Of a DNA stretch of 64,000 nt, positions 515-63,630 are shown piece after piece (the stretch's first letter is position 1; each line of letters opens with the position of its first letter). The notes under the pieces were generated by a model, which was not told the origin of the DNA, did not search any database, and saw only the letters and a list, made by a program, of their open reading frames with translations. Both the position numbers and the translations under genes were made by a program. The stretch comes from Bacilli bacterium (GTDB lineage: Bacteria > Bacillota_I > Bacilli_A > RF39 > UBA660), in assembly GCA_017536505.1 (NCBI GenBank), contig JAFXHG010000038.1:129163-193162 (forward strand), in the 5' to 3' direction.

Positions 515-1174
515 TTAATTAACTAATTCAAATATAAAAACAGTTTGTTTAGTATCACTATATCTTGTACAAGTGATAAGTGTTAATACATTTTTTTCAT
601 AATCTCTATATATTGGAACAGTTCCATCTTTTTTTACTTCATATGTATTAACTAACTTATAAGAATATTTTCTATTATTATAAGTTAAATAGGCCATATC
701 ATTTATTGATAAATTAAATAATTTATCAAAGAAACATACCTTACAAACTCCAGAATGAGCTGCTAATATTAAATTATTATTTTCTTCATTTGGAAATGTA
801 GAACCTTTTATAACTGTTATATTATAGTTTACATTATTGTATTTAGAATTTAAATCTAAAAATCCTCTCTTTAAATTTATTTTAGGTATCTCTAACACAC
901 CTATATAATTATATTGTGTTTGATTACTAGGAACTTGTTCATTATTTTCTTCTTGTGTTTCTTGATTAAATTCTTCTTGCTTTTCTTCAATTACTTCATT
1001 AGAATCTATACTATTAGGTATTTCATTCTCATAAAGCAATATATTCATATCAGAAAAAACTTTATTTCTTCTTTCTTCAAAATATTCAACAAATCCAATA
1101 CAAACACCAAACAGTATTAGTATTATTCCAATTAATAATATACTACTATTCTTCAATTTTATTTTTTTTAACAT
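515..1174 (-). CDS. Sortase-family transpeptidase
   Basis: N-terminal TM anchor, LAAHSG (catalytic His region) and TLITC (catalytic Cys motif TLxTC). Its start overlaps the 3' end of the upstream adhesin gene by 29 nt. The usual Arg about 8-10 residues after the Cys is not obvious. Confidence 0.8.
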   Translation of the reverse strand: MLKKIKLKNSSILLIGIILILFGVCIGFVEYFEERRNKVFSDMNILLYENEIPNSIDSNEVIEEKQEEFNQETQEENNEQVPSNQTQYNYIGVLEIPKINLKRGFLDLNSKYNNVNYNITVIKGSTFPNEENNNLILAAHSGVCKVCFFDKLFNLSINDMAYLTYNNRKYSYKLVNTYEVKKDGTVPIYRDYEKNVLTLITCTRYSDTKQTVFIFELVN

Positions 1175-2939
1175 ATGTAACTATTCCTATACCTAATGCA
1201 ATATCAAACATAGCAATTGCAAGTAAAAGAGCTGATTTAGAACTTAATGTATCTGGGACTTCTACTTCCAATTCGTTTATCATTTTTACCTCAATTACTT
1301 CTTTTGATCCATCTACCGTAAATTTTATTTTTTCTTTACTAAGTTCATAACCTTCTGGGGCTTTTGTTTCAACTAAATAATATTTACCATTTGGTAATCC
1401 AGTAATTTCATAGGCTTTTTCTGTTGATAACCACTTACATGCTGTGTTTTTATTTCCTTTTTTATCTGTACAATATTTTATGACATTACCTTTTTCATCT
1501 TCTATTTGCAAAGTTGCTCCTGGTAACAATTTTTTATTGGTTGAATTTATTTTTGAAATTTTTACAACATTCAATTTATTTGTCATTTTAACTGTTTTAG
1601 TTGTTGTTTCAGCAGTTATTTCAAACTCAACTTTTTCTTTATTTAATACATAACCTTCTGGTGCAATTGTTTCTATTAGATAATATTTTCCAACGCTTAA
1701 ACCTTCTATAACATATGGTTCTTCTGTTGATACCCATTTATAAAGAGTATTTCCAGTTGAATCTTGTACCTCTAAAGATGCTCCTGGTAATTCTTCAATT
1801 CCGGTTACTCCAACTTTCGAAATTGTTACTTTGTTTTTACTATCTGTTAAAGTTATTACACCAGTTAAATTATTCCCATTTAATGTTATTGTTTTTGCTC
1901 TATCAATAACATAACCTTCTGGGGCTTTTACTTCAGTTATTGTATATGTATCATATTCCAAATTTTCTATAACTATAGGATTACCATCAGTTACAAAGGT
2001 TTTAGAATAACCTTTTGTTCCTGTTACTGTTATAGTAGCTCCACTCAAATGAGCATTATTGCCATCTACCTTATTTATTGTTAGTTTTGCTTTAGGTGCA
2101 TTTACTGATATAGATCCTGTTGCAGTAGCACTTGCAGTTGTTTTTTCAGGTTCAACTATATTAGGTGTTACTGATTGATATTCTCCACAAGAGTAGTTTT
2201 GAGCTAAATAATTTGTTTTAGAAATAGATGCTCCAACAGTAACGTTTGCTGTTGTTCCTGCTGAAACAGAAGATGCTGGAATACTTACATAAAATTTGTT
2301 TCCATTTCTTATAACAGTACCTAAATTACTTGTTATAGAAAAATCAGCATCACTATTTTTTGTTATTGTTATTTCATTAGAAATATAATTATCGCCACTT
2401 TTAGTAAAGGTTAACTTACTTGAACTAAAAGATAGTGTTGCCACAGCATATTTTTTCTTTGCTTCAATAGCTGCTTCATACCAACCATAATATTTACTAC
2501 CTTCACCTAAAATTTCTTCTGTTGTTCTAGTATCAGTAACACAAGTATATTGTGTATCTACACCTGAATTACATAAAAATTCATTAATTGCTAATTCTCC
2601 ATAGTAGTAGTTTGCATTGTTTGATACACCTGTTGACACATCAACAGCACCAACACTTTGAATTATACTAGCCACTCCTGCTTTTACCTCATTAGTCCAG
2701 TTGTTATATACCTTACAAGTTTGATTTTTTGCTGCAGGTGTTGTTCTATGAAATTCTGTACAAAATACTGCTGTTGAGCCATAATATTTCAAAGCTAAAT
2801 AATCATAATTATTTAAAGCTTTATCATCACCTTTTTGACTTATTGGCCCTATTTCAGCACTAAAAGCGCTAACGCTTATACTACATAAAAACATAACTAC
2901 TATTAAAAACATGATTAAATGTAATTTATTTTTTTTCAT
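1146..2939 (-). CDS. Cell-wall-anchored adhesin: signal peptide, Cys-containing N-terminal domain, three CnaB/SpaA-type stalk domains, C-terminal sorting signal VPDTL + TM + KKNK
   Basis: Start moved to ATG 2937-2939 (AGGAGG upstream; MKKNKLHLIMFLIVVMFLCSISVSAFS signal peptide). There are three repeats with the G.Y.L.E..APEGY signature. The C-terminus is ...EVPDTLSSKSALLLAIAMFDIALGIGIVTYVKKNKIEE. Confidence 0.8.
   Translation of the reverse strand: MKKNKLHLIMFLIVVMFLCSISVSAFSAEIGPISQKGDDKALNNYDYLALKYYGSTAVFCTEFHRTTPAAKNQTCKVYNNWTNEVKAGVASIIQSVGAVDVSTGVSNNANYYYGELAINEFLCNSGVDTQYTCVTDTRTTEEILGEGSKYYGWYEAAIEAKKKYAVATLSFSSSKLTFTKSGDNYISNEITITKNSDADFSITSNLGTVIRNGNKFYVSIPASSVSAGTTANVTVGASISKTNYLAQNYSCGEYQSVTPNIVEPEKTTASATATGSISVNAPKAKLTINKVDGNNAHLSGATITVTGTKGYSKTFVTDGNPIVIENLEYDTYTITEVKAPEGYVIDRAKTITLNGNNLTGVITLTDSKNKVTISKVGVTGIEELPGASLEVQDSTGNTLYKWVSTEEPYVIEGLSVGKYYLIETIAPEGYVLNKEKVEFEITAETTTKTVKMTNKLNVVKISKINSTNKKLLPGATLQIEDEKGNVIKYCTDKKGNKNTACKWLSTEKAYEITGLPNGKYYLVETKAPEGYELSKEKIKFTVDGSKEVIEVKMINELEVEVPDTLSSKSALLLAIAMFDIALGIGIVTYVKKNKIEE
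1226..2100 (-). repeat. Three tandem CnaB-type (prealbumin-like, isopeptide-type) domain repeats inside the adhesin gene (approximate limits)
   Basis: Repeated protein pattern: KLTINKVD...YTITEVKAPEGYV; KVTISKVG...YYLIETIAPEGYV; VVKISKIN...YYLVETKAPEGYE. Confidence 0.6.
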
Positions 2940-3047
2940 ACTATATCCTCCTATTTTTACTACTATCATTTTATCACAATAAAAAAAATATATCAATTAT
3001 TTTAATAATTAATATACTTTTTTTGGTTTAAATTATTATCTATAAAT

Positions 3048-49704: not shown

Positions 49705-50553
49705 TCACTTCTTTTCTATATTGTGGTAAATATCATATACTTCACTTTTTTTCATACCACGTTCTTTAGCAACTATCTTAATTGCATCCATAGAACTTTT
49801 TCCATCTTCAATATAAAGATTAACATGTTCTTCTATTGTTAAATTTTTATATTCAGTTGTTTCTTTATTTCCCTCAACAACTACTACAAGCTCTCCTTTA
49901 TATTCATTATTTTGTTCTATCAACTCTCCAATAGTTCCTCTATAAACTTCTTCATATTTTTTAGTTATTTCTCGGGAAATACTTATTTTACGATTATTTC
50001 CCAAAATATTTCCCAAATCTCTTAATGTTTTATTTATACGATGAGGTGCTTCATAAAGTATTAATGTTGCATCTATGTTTTTTAAAAATTCTAATTCTTT
50101 TCTTCTAGCACTATCTTTATTATTTAAAAATCCATAATAATAAAATGGCATAGGACTAATACCTGATGAAGTAAGAGCTGGTATTAAAGCTGTAGCTCCC
50201 GGAAGACTAACTACATTATAACCTTCTTCTATAGCGAATTTTGCTAGTTCATATCCTGGATCACTTATTATAGGAGTACCCCTATCACTAACCAAACCTA
50301 CATTACTACCACTATTTAGATATTCTAGTAATTTTTCCTTATTACCTGATTCATTGTAATTATGACTAGATATTAATTTTTTACTAATATCTAAATATTT
50401 TAATAATTGTCCTGTTACTCGAGTATCTTCACAAAAAACTACATCCACCATTTTTAAAGTATTTATAGCTCTTATAGTTATATCTTCCATATTTCCTATA
50501 GGTGTTGGGATAAGATATAAAGTTGGACTATTATCATAACTTTTTTGTGACAT
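49705..50553 (-). CDS. rsmI: 16S rRNA (cytidine1402-2'-O)-methyltransferase
   Basis: LYLIPTPIGNMEDITIRAINTLKMVDVVFCEDTR. Start moved to MSQKSYDN. Confidence 0.9.
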   Translation of the reverse strand: MSQKSYDNSPTLYLIPTPIGNMEDITIRAINTLKMVDVVFCEDTRVTGQLLKYLDISKKLISSHNYNESGNKEKLLEYLNSGSNVGLVSDRGTPIISDPGYELAKFAIEEGYNVVSLPGATALIPALTSSGISPMPFYYYGFLNNKDSARRKELEFLKNIDATLILYEAPHRINKTLRDLGNILGNNRKISISREITKKYEEVYRGTIGELIEQNNEYKGELVVVVEGNKETTEYKNLTIEEHVNLYIEDGKSSMDAIKIVAKERGMKKSEVYDIYHNIEKK

Positions 50554-56488: not shown

Positions 56489-56902
56489 TTATCTTCTTTT
56501 TTTAAAGAATGATTGAACTAATTCTCTACACTTTTTTTCACACACTTGGGAAATAATTTCTATATTTTTTAATTGATCCGTGGATCCATAATTTTCATTT
56601 TTAACTCCATATACTATTTTTTTTATTCTAGATTGTTCTATAGCTCCTGAACACATCATACAAGGTTCCATAGTTACATAAATCGTACAATCTTCTAATC
56701 TCCAATTTTTTAATTTTTTACAGGCTTTTGAAATAGCAATTATTTCTGCATGTTTAGTAACATTCTTAGTTTTTTCTTTTTTATTAAATGCTTTAGCAAT
56801 TATTTTATTATTTTTTACTATTAAAGCCCCTACCGGTACTTCTTCGTATTTATAAGCTTTTTTTGCTTCTTTTATAGCAATATTCATATAATATTCATTC
56901 AT
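56489..56902 (-). CDS. tadA: tRNA-specific adenosine deaminase
   Basis: HAEIIAI and PCMMCSGAI CDA motifs. Start moved to ATG 56900-56902 (GGAGG at 56908-56912). The track's earlier start is a TTG inside the RBS. Confidence 0.9.
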   Translation of the reverse strand: MNEYYMNIAIKEAKKAYKYEEVPVGALIVKNNKIIAKAFNKKEKTKNVTKHAEIIAISKACKKLKNWRLEDCTIYVTMEPCMMCSGAIEQSRIKKIVYGVKNENYGSTDQLKNIEIISQVCEKKCRELVQSFFKKRR

Positions 56903-56914
56903 TTTTACCTCCAA

Positions 56915-56930
56915 TGTTTCACGTGAAACA
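56915..56930. other. parS site 1 (ParB/Spo0J-binding centromere palindrome)
   Basis: Exact TGTTTCACGTGAAACA, 2 nt from the tadA Shine-Dalgarno. Confidence 0.8.
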
Positions 56931-56941
56931 TATATTTTAAT

Positions 56942-56957
56942 TATTTCCCAGGAAATA
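56942..56957. other. Noc-binding-site-like palindrome 1 (15/16 match)
   Basis: TATTTCCCAGGAAATA versus the NBS consensus TATTTCCCGGGAAATA. Confidence 0.55.
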
Positions 56958-57026
56958 TTGTATTTAATTTATAATATTTCAAAAAAATAATACTTAAAAT
57001 TATATTTAATCAATTTATATTATCAA

Positions 57027-57042
57027 TGTTTCACGTGAAACA
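57027..57042. other. parS site 2
   Basis: Exact TGTTTCACGTGAAACA. The palindrome extends to 26 bp (57022-57047). Confidence 0.8.
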
Positions 57043-57130
57043 TTGATTAGTCATAAAAATATTATATTATAAAAATAGATAAATTATAATATTTTTATAT
57101 TTTATTTAATATTTATTTTATCTTAAACTA

Positions 57131-57146
57131 TGTTTCACGTGAAACA
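57131..57146. other. parS site 3
   Basis: Exact TGTTTCACGTGAAACA, 23 nt beyond the SRP RNA T-tract. Confidence 0.8.
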
Positions 57147-57176
57147 TTAGCTTATTTATAAAATCACATAAAAAAA

Positions 57177-57247
57177 GCACACACATTTAGGGATTCTTAA
57201 GGCTGCTGTCTTCCAACTCTGACCTGATTCAAATATAAATGTTGTGC
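57177..57247 (-). ncRNA. ffs: Signal recognition particle RNA, minimal 4.5S-type (domain IV hairpin only)
   Basis: Minus-sense sequence GCACAACAUUUAUAUUUGAAUCAGGUCAGAGUUGGAAGACAGCAGCCUUAAGAAUCCCUAAAUGUGUGUGC + U7. It contains CAGGUCAG...GGAA...AGCAGCC as in E. coli 4.5S (CAGGUCAGGUCCGGAAGGAAGCAGCC). The 12-bp basal stem has one bulge. Confidence 0.8.
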
Positions 57248-57253
57248 ATTAAT

Positions 57254-57282
57254 AATATATTATAAAAAAAAAAAAATATCAA
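57254..57282 (-). promoter_or_regulatory. Candidate sigma-A promoter of the SRP RNA
   Basis: TTGATA (57277-57282), a 17-nt spacer made mostly of a 13-T run, TATATT (57254-57259), then 6 nt to the G at 57247. Confidence 0.45.
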
Positions 57283-57368
57283 TACTTAATTTATATATTT
57301 TTATTATAAATATAATTTTATCCCAATTTATTATGTATATTAAATTATTTATATTTAATTTATACCAA

Positions 57369-57384
57369 TGTTTCACGTGAAACA
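57369..57384. other. parS site 4
   Basis: Exact TGTTTCACGTGAAACA. The palindrome extends to 28 bp (57363-57390). Confidence 0.8.
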
Positions 57385-57400
57385 TTGGTAGTTATAAATT

Positions 57401-57416
57401 TATTTCCCGGGAAATA
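57401..57416. other. Noc-binding-site palindrome 2 (perfect)
   Basis: Exact TATTTCCCGGGAAATA. Confidence 0.65.
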
Positions 57417-57438
57417 TTTTAAATATAAATAAAAAGAA

Positions 57439-57454
57439 TGTTTCACGTGAAACA
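57439..57454. other. parS site 5 (also the likely gyrA terminator hairpin)
   Basis: Exact TGTTTCACGTGAAACA. The palindrome extends to 28 bp (57433-57460), lies 2 nt after the gyrA stop, and is followed by a U-rich tract on the minus transcript. Confidence 0.8.
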
Positions 57455-57462
57455 TTCTTTCA

Positions 57463-60006
57463 TTACTTTTCTATATTATTAGTATTTTTTGAAGTTTGTT
57501 GGATTGTTTGTTCTTCTAATTCATTTTCTTCTTCAGTGTGTTCTATAATAGCTATTGTACTTACTTTTTGGTTATCTTTTAAGTTAATTAATTTAACACC
57601 TTGAGCAACTCGTCCAGTAGAAGATACTTGAGAAAGTGGTAATCTAATAATTATTCCACTATCAGTAATAATCATTAAATCTTCTTCTCCATTTACTATT
57701 TTAAATGAAACTATATTTCCATTCTTTTCTGTAACATTAAGTGCTTTAACACCTTTACTTCCTCTATGAGTCATTCTGTATTGATCTATTTTAGTTTTCT
57801 TACCATAACCTTTTTCTGTAACAACTAGTACATCATCGTTAGCATAAGATATTTCCATACCTACAGCTACCCCGTCTCCTACATCGATACCTCTAACACC
57901 TGATGCAGTTCTGCCCATGATTCTTACTTCATTTTCATTAAATCTAATTAATCTACCATTTGATGATGCAATTAAGATTTCTGCATTTCCTTCAGTAATC
58001 TTAGCTGAAATAAGTTCATCATCTTCTTTTAATGTAATGGCAATCTTACCATTTGTTCTAATGTTTTCAAATTCTGTTATATTAGTTCTCTTAATTATAC
58101 CTTTTTGTGTACAAAGTACAACATAAGCAGGTGCATCCTTTGGAGTTGCCTTTAACATTACATTTACCTTTTCATCTTTTTCTAAAGGTAATAAGTTAAT
58201 TATTGGTAATCCTTTAGATTGTCTATTGAATAATGGTACTTCATAACCTTTCATTCTATATACTTTACCTTTATTAGTAAAGAACATAATGTAGTCATGT
58301 GTTGTCATAGATAAAATATTTTCAACAAAGTCTTCTTCATTTGTTGTCATACCTTTAATACCTACACCACCCCTATTTTGAGCTTTATAAGTATCACTTT
58401 CAACACGTTTTATATATCCTTTATTAGTTAAAGTAATAACTAAATCTTCAACAGGTATTAATGATTCATCATCGATATAATCAATTGCTGTCATATCAAT
58501 AGATGTTCTTCTTTCATCTGCATATTTATCTTTAATTTCAAGCATTTCTTGTTTAATAATAGCTAAAACCTTATTAATATCAGCTAATATTTCTTTATAT
58601 TCAGCTATAAGTTTCAATAATTCTGCAAGTTCTGCTTCTATTTTTTCTCTTTCTAGTCCTGTTAAACGTCTTAATTTTAATTCTAATATTGCATCTGTTT
58701 GTATTTCAGTTAAACCAAATCTAGACATTAATTTTTCTTTAGCTTCTACATCACTATTAGCAGCTTTAATAATTGCTATTACTTCATCTATATTATCTTG
58801 AGCAATCTTGTAACCTTCTAATATATGAACTCTATTTTCTGCTTTTTCTAAATCAAATTTAGTTCTTCTAATAATAACTTCTTTTTGATGTTCGATATAT
58901 TTAGCAATTATATCTTTAAGTCCTAATGTTTTAGGAGTCATATCATCAATCATTAATAAAATAATTCCGTAATTCACTTGGAAATTAGTATGTTTATATA
59001 AATTATTTAATACTACTTGTGGATTTGCATCTCTTTTTAAAGTAATAGTTATTTTAACACCATCTTTTAAATCAGTGTGATAATCAGCTATTCCATCAAT
59101 TACTTTAGTATGAACAAGTTCAGCTACTTTGTTCTTTAATTCTAAAGTATTTACTCCATATGGAACTTCAGTAATAACTATATTGCTATGATTTCCTTCT
59201 TCTTCAATTACAGCTCTACTTCTAATAGTAATTGATCCACGACCTGTTTCATATGCTTTTCTTATTCCTGAATTTCCTAGAATTATACCACCTGTTGGAA
59301 AATCTGGACCTTTAATATGTTCCATAAGTCCTAATGTATCTATTTCAGGATTATCTATATAAGCAACACATCCATCAATTACTTCACCTAAATTATGAGG
59401 TGGAATATTTGTTGCCATACCAACTGCTATACCCATAGATCCATTTACTAATATATTAGGGAATCTTGAAGGTAATACAACAGGTTCTTTAAATAATTCA
59501 TCGAAATTAAGTTTCATATCAACAGTATCTTTTTTAATATCTCTTAAAAGTTCCAATGATATTTTAGCTAATCTTGCTTCTGTATAACGATAAGCAGCAG
59601 CTCCATCTCCCTCGATATTACCAAAGTTACCATGTCCATCAACTAACATATATCTTTGGTTGAAGTCTTGTGCTAAACGAACCATAGCATCATAAATACT
59701 TGAGTCTCCATGTGGGTGGTAATGACCCATAACATATCCTACTGTTGTAGCTGATTTTTTATGTGGTTTATCTGGTGTATTTCCTTCCTCTAACATTGAC
59801 CATAGTATTCTTCTATGTACAGGTTTTAAACCATCCCTTAAATCAGGAATAGCACGTGATGTAATAACACTCATTGAATAATCAAGAAATGAGTTTTTAA
59901 CTTCATTAACAATATTGTTTTCTGCTACTGTATCTCTTTCGTGGAATGTTCCACCAAATTCTTCTTTGTTTTCTACTTCTTTTGTTACTTTTTCTTCATT
60001 TTCCAT
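57463..60006 (-). CDS. gyrA: DNA gyrase subunit A
   Basis: AIPDLRDGLKPVHRRIL, HPHGDSSIYDAMVR (QRDR), six C-terminal beta-pinwheel repeats, 847 aa. Confidence 0.97.
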   Translation of the reverse strand: MENEEKVTKEVENKEEFGGTFHERDTVAENNIVNEVKNSFLDYSMSVITSRAIPDLRDGLKPVHRRILWSMLEEGNTPDKPHKKSATTVGYVMGHYHPHGDSSIYDAMVRLAQDFNQRYMLVDGHGNFGNIEGDGAAAYRYTEARLAKISLELLRDIKKDTVDMKLNFDELFKEPVVLPSRFPNILVNGSMGIAVGMATNIPPHNLGEVIDGCVAYIDNPEIDTLGLMEHIKGPDFPTGGIILGNSGIRKAYETGRGSITIRSRAVIEEEGNHSNIVITEVPYGVNTLELKNKVAELVHTKVIDGIADYHTDLKDGVKITITLKRDANPQVVLNNLYKHTNFQVNYGIILLMIDDMTPKTLGLKDIIAKYIEHQKEVIIRRTKFDLEKAENRVHILEGYKIAQDNIDEVIAIIKAANSDVEAKEKLMSRFGLTEIQTDAILELKLRRLTGLEREKIEAELAELLKLIAEYKEILADINKVLAIIKQEMLEIKDKYADERRTSIDMTAIDYIDDESLIPVEDLVITLTNKGYIKRVESDTYKAQNRGGVGIKGMTTNEEDFVENILSMTTHDYIMFFTNKGKVYRMKGYEVPLFNRQSKGLPIINLLPLEKDEKVNVMLKATPKDAPAYVVLCTQKGIIKRTNITEFENIRTNGKIAITLKEDDELISAKITEGNAEILIASSNGRLIRFNENEVRIMGRTASGVRGIDVGDGVAVGMEISYANDDVLVVTEKGYGKKTKIDQYRMTHRGSKGVKALNVTEKNGNIVSFKIVNGEEDLMIITDSGIIIRLPLSQVSSTGRVAQGVKLINLKDNQKVSTIAIIEHTEEENELEEQTIQQTSKNTNNIEK

Positions 60007-63174: not shown

Positions 63175-63630
63175 TTAGTTTTTTTCTTCTAATTTTCTTT
63201 CATATAATTTAGATTTTAACATAGTAGCTCTTACAATTTGATTTTCTAATGAATTTACTGAAATATCTAAATCAATTTTTTCTTCATTTTTAAATAAAAC
63301 TTCACTATTATAATTTTTTTTATTTATAGATTTTATCTTATTTAAAGCAATCCAAGTACTTTGTTTAGTTCTAGTTGAAGAAGTTGGAAAAAATATAATA
63401 TTTCTACTTTCTTCTATTATTATAGGATATTTAGTTTTAATTCCAGTTAAACTTTTTGTACCAATACATCTACCTTCATATGAACTACCATAAAACTCAC
63501 AATTATCTTTAATAATACTATTAGATGATTTTTGTACTATATATTCATCATATTCTTCATAAACTTTAGACATTTCTTCACCAAGTGGTACTATAGCTAA
63601 AGTAGCTGAACTTATTTCATAATTTTCCAT
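63175..63630 (-). CDS. comK: ComK-family transcription factor
   Basis: Colinear matches to B. subtilis ComK, recalled from memory: YEISSATLAIVP / YEVNGATIAVLP; CEFYGSSYEGRCIGT / CRFFGSSYAGRKAGT; PIIIEESRNIIFFPTSSTRTKQSTWIA / PIMVDPSNQIFLFPTLSSTRPQCGWIS; SLENQIVRATMLKSK / SFENQVYRTAWLRTK. Confidence 0.8.
   Translation of the reverse strand: MENYEISSATLAIVPLGEEMSKVYEEYDEYIVQKSSNSIIKDNCEFYGSSYEGRCIGTKSLTGIKTKYPIIIEESRNIIFFPTSSTRTKQSTWIALNKIKSINKKNYNSEVLFKNEEKIDLDISVNSLENQIVRATMLKSKLYERKLEEKN

Follow-up and report, generated by a model that had tools for sequence, protein, structure and literature searches.

The spacer between gyrA and tadA in a 64-kb window of chromosomal DNA raises the question of why sites for two related DNA-binding proteins should lie side by side. 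The window (i.e. the whole stretch analysed) comes from an uncultured Bacilli lineage of low guanine-plus-cytosine (GC) content and belongs to a ruminant-gut metagenome-assembled genome (MAG). The textbook case of a duplicated DNA-binding protein gaining a new site and a new job is that of ParB and Noc, which are usually pictured as acting in separate places, with ParB sites (parS) near the replication origin, oriC, and Noc-binding sites (NBS) chromosome-wide. The gyrA–tadA spacer contains both and had been described, in an original prediction made from the sequence of the window, as a plasmid-style centromere array. Examination of the spacer, its genomic position and its relatives led us to regard it as probably a chromosomal centromere, at which a ParB clamp would load on parS and a paralogous Noc-type clamp on the interspersed NBS.

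A scan of the whole window detected five exact copies of the parS 16-mer TGTTTCACGTGAAACA, all in the spacer (Table 1), and no sixth copy was found in the 64 kb even at up to three mismatches. Shuffled sequences were expected to yield 0.03 matches at up to two mismatches, and none of 100 shuffles reached five. The spacer also contained one exact NBS, TATTTCCCGGGAAATA, and one copy with a single mismatch, TATTTCCCAGGAAATA, for which shuffles gave an expectation of 0.00. Jalal et al. 2020 (PMC7383237) worked with these same two 16-mers as consensus sites. The sites were thereby reproduced where the original prediction had placed them, and the reported spacing of 11–22 bp does separate genuine parS-type from NBS-type palindromes. 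TATTTCCCAGGAAATA is the commonest NBS variant across the lineage. A third NBS-like site in the window, TATTTCTCGGGAAATA, is isolated and represents a variant that is rare in the lineage. The window therefore holds one exact and two one-mismatch NBS, again against an expectation of 0.00. Within the ~84 kb visible for this genome, all NBS-like sites lay within ~10 kb of the array or of oriC, with none in positions 1–49,965 of the window. The flanks of the parS copies differed from one another, as had been claimed; the accompanying statement that each copy extends its own palindrome held for three of the five, in which the palindrome reached 26–28 bp (57024–57045, 57363–57390 and 57433–57460). 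A dispersed palindrome, such as a repetitive extragenic palindrome (REP) or a miniature inverted-repeat transposable element (MITE), and a duplicated block were both ruled out, as no copies occurred outside the array and the flanks were unshared.

The position of the array relative to oriC was derived from an identical but longer sequence, the 390-kb scaffold_4 of ENA ERZ28654013 (a ruminant-gut metagenome), of which the window forms a part. Genes around the array are all on the minus strand in the order dnaN, a ComK-family gene, recF, gyrB, gyrA, the array spacer, tadA, dnaX, ybaB and recR. Beyond the right end of the window follow dnaA and then, on the opposite strand, rpmH-rnpA-yidC-jag-mnmE-mnmG-gidB. 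As the rpmH-dnaA spacer contains both a change in the sign of the GC skew and a cluster of six DnaA-box-like sites, the array is located ~9–10 kb from oriC.

Conservation of the array was assessed in related loci (identified here by L numbers). Two DnaA-anchored relatives covering the spacer, L005 (97% identity) and L006 (91%), contained five to six exact parS each, with differing positions and flanks; the position of parS-1 was kept in both. In a third DnaA-anchored relative, L007 (88% identity), the contig stops ~100 bp beyond gyrA, and one parS site with one mismatch is visible. A motif-blind sample was obtained by scanning metagenome contigs with a ComK-like protein alignment, yielding 33 loci that reach past gyrA and represent ~15 species groups. 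In 32 of these 33 loci parS directly followed gyrA, the exception being L192 with NBS only; L152, a short copy from one of the motif-blind groups, likewise had NBS only. The main parS variant, TGTTCCACGTGAAACA, carries a T/C change at position 5. This position is N in the Bacillus subtilis consensus, so the variation is as expected for a canonical ParB reader. Three features of a chromosomal ParB–parS system are present here: an excess of parS over chance, proximity to the origin, and conservation in relatives with tolerance at position 5. Across the lineage, the parS array is a constant element of one syntenic spot.

Association of parS with NBS was examined by scanning 185,579 species genomes for an exact parS, a gap of 5–35 bp and then ATTTCCNNGGAAAT. 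This layout was found at no fewer than 119 loci in at least 117 related species' genomes. All matches listed were gut MAGs, and GC content was 22–34% in all but one (118 low-GC loci; 45% in L095). The labels among these matches included Bacilli, Erysipelotrichaceae, Tenericutes, 'Mycoplasma sp.', Candidatus Scybalousia, Candidatus Onthousia (placed by NCBI as Bacilli incertae sedis) and Clostridium sp. CAG:710, and a few were labelled Muribaculaceae (apparently mislabelled, judged by content) or 'uncultured bacterium'. No Bacillus, Staphylococcus or Listeria was present among the matches listed. In every match listed, the sites were beside gyrA and/or tadA-dnaX (i.e. in the spacers flanking tadA), with GyrA identities to the window of 53–97%. 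The outlier L095 is an Erysipelotrichaceae MAG in which parS and a one-mismatch NBS are 48 bp apart and ~3.3 kb from gyrA.

Several loci contained regular alternating arrays, for example (parS-40-NBS-35) repeated nine times in L065 and (parS-49-NBS-35) repeated six times in L040. Within such tandem units, variable columns numbered 4/96 in the NBS cores (p = 0.0012) and 3/96 in the parS cores (p = 0.0003) as compared to 55/339 in the spacers. The matches listed comprised 387 exact parS and 257 exact NBS, and against these 644 exact sites there were no palindromes of hybrid parS/NBS half-sites and no symmetric intermediates at single positions. All 477 parS sites (up to one mismatch) in these matches lay in arrays, while 273 NBS were in arrays and 40 were scattered, some of them at conserved places within dnaX. 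An exact NBS at a conserved dnaX coding position, ~1.8 kb from the arrays, was seen in L010, L021, L046 and L078, which belong to one subclade. Since each locus of the pattern scan had been selected for one parS–NBS pair, the unbiased motif-blind sample was checked as well, and a spacer NBS was found in ~5 of its 15 species groups. Close parS–NBS pairing is common and evidently selected where present, and is not obligatory. The dual-site observation of the original prediction holds, and it extends well past the window.

NBS were also encountered at the origin itself. An NBS-like site lies beside the DnaA-box cluster of oriC in L001 (6885–6900, in the rpmH-dnaA spacer), L006 (9668) and L007 (9631), for which the minor Noc site beside dnaA of Staphylococcus aureus offers a likeness (PMC5540599). 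In both L182 and L207 an NBS is found at position 199, ~9.8 kb upstream of the ComK-like gene, at the expected gidB/noc-like junction; in L182 it is just upstream of the noc-like start, and autoregulation is possible. Further NBS were noted at L001 131–146, L127 5905 and L128 5904, and one exact NBS lies between jag and mnmE. The NBS of the array, the oriC-side NBS-like sites and the NBS of the gidB/noc-like junction suggest a centromere- or origin-associated role for the Noc-like protein.

The candidate reader of these NBS is encoded directly after gidB in relatives, where the sole ParB-family gene was found. The search for noc paralogues that the original prediction had called for returned, in relatives, a Noc-type gene with specificity residues Q173, K179 and R201. 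The protein has 294–583 residues in the fetched relatives and 263–848 across the family. Its first 200 residues matched solved structures of Noc (3e-59 and 2e-52) ahead of those of Spo0J (1e-48 and 6e-47), and it ends in a Noc-like C-terminal domain, so that both a gidB-adjacent origin gene and this domain are present in relatives. Specificity residues were examined in 270 family members, 120 close members and 150 representatives at 50% identity, with the DNA-binding motif readable in 92 and 140, respectively. Q173 and R201 were both present in 232 of the 232 readable members; Q173 was invariant in the 92 close members, and the two residues occurred together in all 140 readable representatives. 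The commonest specificity set was Q-K-N-R (65/92 close members and 119/140 representatives), and K179 was replaced by T in approximately ten close members. According to Jalal et al. (PMC7383237), NBS specificity requires no more than Q173, R201 and one lysine (179 or 184), and parS binders invariably have R173. On these residues the Noc-like protein is a predicted reader of NBS, and binding to parS is not expected of it.

A long, disordered P/S/T/E-rich tandem-repeat linker of ~100–600 residues separates the DNA-binding domain of the protein from the C-terminal one, and the length of this linker varies even within one species (proteins of 583 and 503 residues). The repeat often breaks assemblies, and many database copies are 'partial' because their contigs end within it. 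Long-linker Noc-like proteins form a very large, unannotated subfamily that fills all 150 of the listed representatives at 50% identity.

Our favoured interpretation, a two-clamp chromosomal centromere, leads to the following scheme. Dimers of ParB/Spo0J type would nucleate on the five parS and close as cytidine triphosphate (CTP)-dependent clamps. By analogy with studied ParBs, the closed clamp would then slide over the origin region and recruit SMC. Noc-type dimers, encoded beside gidB (rsmG), would nucleate a second clamp on the NBS. Neighbouring clamps would in this way load beside the nucleation complex of the other protein and slide across it, and gaps of 11–22 bp between parS and NBS make cooperation or mutual roadblocking plausible. 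We infer three things: a canonical ParB gene at some other place in the genome, loading of both proteins on this spacer, and significance of their proximity.

Several findings weigh against this interpretation. Pairing is not universal, a pair within 60–90 bp being found in ~2–3 of the 15 motif-blind groups, and in the closest relatives (L005, L006 and L134) the array contains no good NBS. The Noc-like gene of the window's own genome is deduced from relatives with 97–98% identical DnaA. Noc-like proteins scored 287 and 271 bits on TIGR04285, below the curated cutoff of 315. They also lack the defining feature of Noc, an N-terminal amphipathic membrane-targeting helix, which is highly conserved and required for function (PMC4331003; PMC7333895). 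In almost every member whose N-terminus is complete, the box-I motif PNxFQPR starts at residue 15–24 (mode 17), leaving no room for such a helix; in alignment with the B. subtilis Noc chain, the L005 protein has its residue 4 opposite residue 26. A protein without the membrane helix cannot act via the known mechanism of nucleoid occlusion. Finally, neither an R173-type ParB nor a ParA was detected in the window, in ~20 kb spanning oriC or in relatives, for which ~1.8 Mb of origin-proximal DNA was covered. ParB was searched for with phmmer, the Noc-like N-terminal domain serving as the query for all open reading frames of the window and of every locus. Extension by 10 kb leftward and by 10 kb beyond gidB revealed ParB-family genes of Noc type only; protein searches returned the Q173 family alone and were too saturated by it to reach paralogues. 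Neither soj nor spo0J follows the noc-like gene in relatives, and parA, parB and noc stood together in the ancestral Firmicutes origin (ORI) cluster (PMC8136486). The parS reader is assumed rather than seen, the search having covered origin-proximal DNA; a ParB encoded elsewhere in the genome, as in streptococci, is the most economical assumption.

The strongest competitor, to which we allot a substantial minority chance, is a centromere array with incidental NBS, in which both motifs are origin-proximal and gather in a long AT-rich spacer, of which there are few, while the two proteins are functionally independent. The modest frequency of spacer NBS and of close pairs in the motif-blind groups, the nearest relatives without an array NBS, and the lone NBS at oriC, in dnaX and upstream of the noc-like gene are all compatible with such chance gathering. 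It accounts poorly for pairing at 119 or more loci and for alternating tandem arrays that keep both cores while the spacers between them diverge. Spacing also differs by type of neighbour: parS–NBS neighbours cluster at 21–50 bp and parS–parS neighbours are mostly >60 bp apart, in a sample selected for one pair per locus.

It is improbable that a single long Noc-like ParB-family protein reads both palindromes in a lineage without a separate ParB, a possibility raised in the original prediction. One ParB-family gene in the accessible DNA, and the absence of soj and spo0J from their ancestral place beside noc, are what such a lineage would look like. However, variants with Q173 and R201 bind NBS specifically and no parS binder lacks R173 (PMC7383237), hybrid half-sites were absent from the matches listed, and the variant tolerance of parS is that of a canonical ParB. 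The absence of ParB, moreover, concerns origin-proximal DNA only.

A third alternative is that the palindromes serve as hairpins (transcription terminators or REP-like elements) instead of loading sites for proteins. Across the lineage, 96% of parS copies are the 18-mer ATGTTTCACGTGAAACAT, and beyond the core the palindromes extend with non-conserved sequence by a mean of 3.2 bp per side as compared to 0.54 bp at control positions. Directly after gyrA, the parS-5 palindrome scores as a bidirectional terminator and is the only terminator-like hairpin of the region. We judge this alternative very unlikely, as the exact 16-mer is the ParB consensus and is kept across species with GyrA identity of only 54–96%, parS is confined to one locus with no copy elsewhere in the window or the loci, and a terminator-like tail is present on one of the five copies only. 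A hairpin role could in any case coexist with protein binding. The extended palindromes have copy-specific sequence and reach 40 bp in relatives; their cause could be a use as hairpin or terminator, a required shape, or the template-switch 'perfecting' of quasi-palindromes.

An integrated centromere of a plasmid or mobile element, which the dense array of short palindromes superficially resembles, is effectively refuted by the conserved housekeeping synteny of the whole lineage, and neither mobile-element genes, a parAB operon nor a break in base composition was found near the array, whose plasmid matches were only trivial AT-rich ones. The 'plasmid-style' label is accordingly replaced by a chromosomal one, and the premise that a tight array denotes plasmid architecture does not hold, as tight origin-proximal clusters of chromosomal parS are known (PMC7333895).

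A bolder form of the two-clamp centromere was also considered, in which the Noc paralogue was repurposed, through loss of the helix and gain of a disordered linker, and is co-loaded with ParB into a hybrid two-clamp partition complex. We put this forward tentatively and regard it as rather doubtful at present; a more extreme version dispenses with canonical ParB altogether and has parS recognised by some novel means.

Comparison with known systems separates what is familiar from what is new. B. subtilis Spo0J/parS and Noc/NBS share with this lineage the identical 16-bp consensus palindromes, paralogous CTP-dependent readers of the ParB family (here predicted), a noc gene beside gidB at the origin and origin-proximal parS. 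In B. subtilis, however, parS sites are scattered through a large region around the origin and NBS across most of the chromosome (PMC7383237), whereas parS of this lineage is gathered in one spacer of ~0.5–1 kb, often interleaved with NBS. The lineage also differs in having no soj or spo0J beside noc, and in a Noc-type protein with a repeat linker instead of the amphipathic helix that B. subtilis Noc needs (PMC4331003). Several parS close together near oriC are likewise known from clustered chromosomal centromeres, with four oriC-proximal sites in Pseudomonas aeruginosa and 20–23 near the origin in Streptomyces and Listeria (PMC7333895; PMC4368675). The present array is denser (five sites in 540 bp), is interleaved with the sites of a second paralogue and has no adjacent parAB. 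As in the ParA-less ParB–parS–SMC systems of Streptococcus pneumoniae and S. aureus, no ParA was seen near the origin and the ORI cluster is dislocated (PMC7333895; PMC8136486). Those species have an identified ParB, whereas none was located here, and S. pneumoniae lacks Noc. Plasmid centromere arrays (e.g. F sopC or iterated ParB/KorB sites) also place several binding sites within a few hundred bp. The array described here differs in being chromosomal and syntenic, in using the chromosomal parS consensus, in having window sites that are not direct-repeat units and in the lack of an adjacent partition operon.

Clustered origin-proximal chromosomal parS and ParA-less systems are already known, and taken by itself the parS array is a very dense but otherwise ordinary centromere of a known type. 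No published description was found of recurrent interleaving, or in places co-amplification, of parS and NBS, in agreement with the original prediction, nor of a helix-less long-linker Noc subfamily or of an ORI cluster that has lost parA and parB in one large lineage.

Other features of the region were recorded alongside the array (Table 1). The flank TTGATA of parS-2 forms the -35 element of a promoter-like site (57026–56999, minus strand) facing tadA. A search of RNA families identified ffs and one tRNA, and nothing else. The ComK-family gene (63175–63630, minus strand) occupies the place that yaaA has in B. subtilis, between dnaN and recF; it is kept at this spot across the lineage (most loci from L014 to L210) with 37–100% identity and served as the lineage marker. 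At the left end of the window (515–2996) there is a sortase gene with an adjoining gene for a SpaA-type pilin domain, the Pfam labels being taken from the identical copy in L129.

Table 1. Positions of array sites and associated genes (window coordinates unless a locus is named).
Feature	Position	Strand	Remarks
gyrA	57463..60006	-	upstream flank of the array throughout the lineage
parS-5 in 28-bp palindrome	57433..57460	.	exact parS at 57439–57454; 9 bp past the gyrA stop codon
NBS TATTTCCCGGGAAATA	57401..57416	.	exact; 16 bp from parS-4, 22 bp from parS-5
parS-4	57369..57384	.	exact; within a 28-bp palindrome
ffs	57161..57257	-	small bacterial signal recognition particle (SRP) RNA gene embedded in the array; RF00169, 55.9 bits (gathering score 40), E = 1.5e-9
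parS-3	57131..57146	.	exact; 15 bp beyond the 3' end of ffs
parS-2	57027..57042	.	exact; palindrome extends to 26 bp
NBS-like TATTTCCCAGGAAATA	56942..56957	.	one central mismatch; 11 bp from parS-1
parS-1	56915..56930	.	exact; 13 bp upstream of the tadA ATG, directly before the tadA GGAGG ribosome-binding site
tadA (tRNA adenosine deaminase)	56489..56902	-	downstream flank of the array; first gene of tadA-dnaX-ybaB-recR
NBS-like TATTTCTCGGGAAATA	49966..49981	.	isolated, one mismatch, 7 kb from the array, inside a tetrapyrrole-methylase-family methylase gene (probably rsmI); status uncertain
noc-like gene, L005	938..2689		with repeat linker
noc-like gene, L130	10822..12333		with repeat linker
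noc-like gene, L006	1662..3185		with repeat linker

This lineage departs from the usual picture of ParB and Noc. The two types of site occur repeatedly at 20–50 bp from each other and are even co-amplified as a unit, the Noc-type protein is without the feature that defines nucleoid occlusion, and the origin cluster is without ParA and the usual ParB. If the hybrid complex were real, the lineage would provide a natural system in which two different CTP-gated clamps cooperate with or block each other within a few hundred bp. The departures themselves make the lineage a natural test bed for how heterologous CTP clamps collide with, exclude or help one another, for what a Noc does without membrane binding and for why parS sites cluster.

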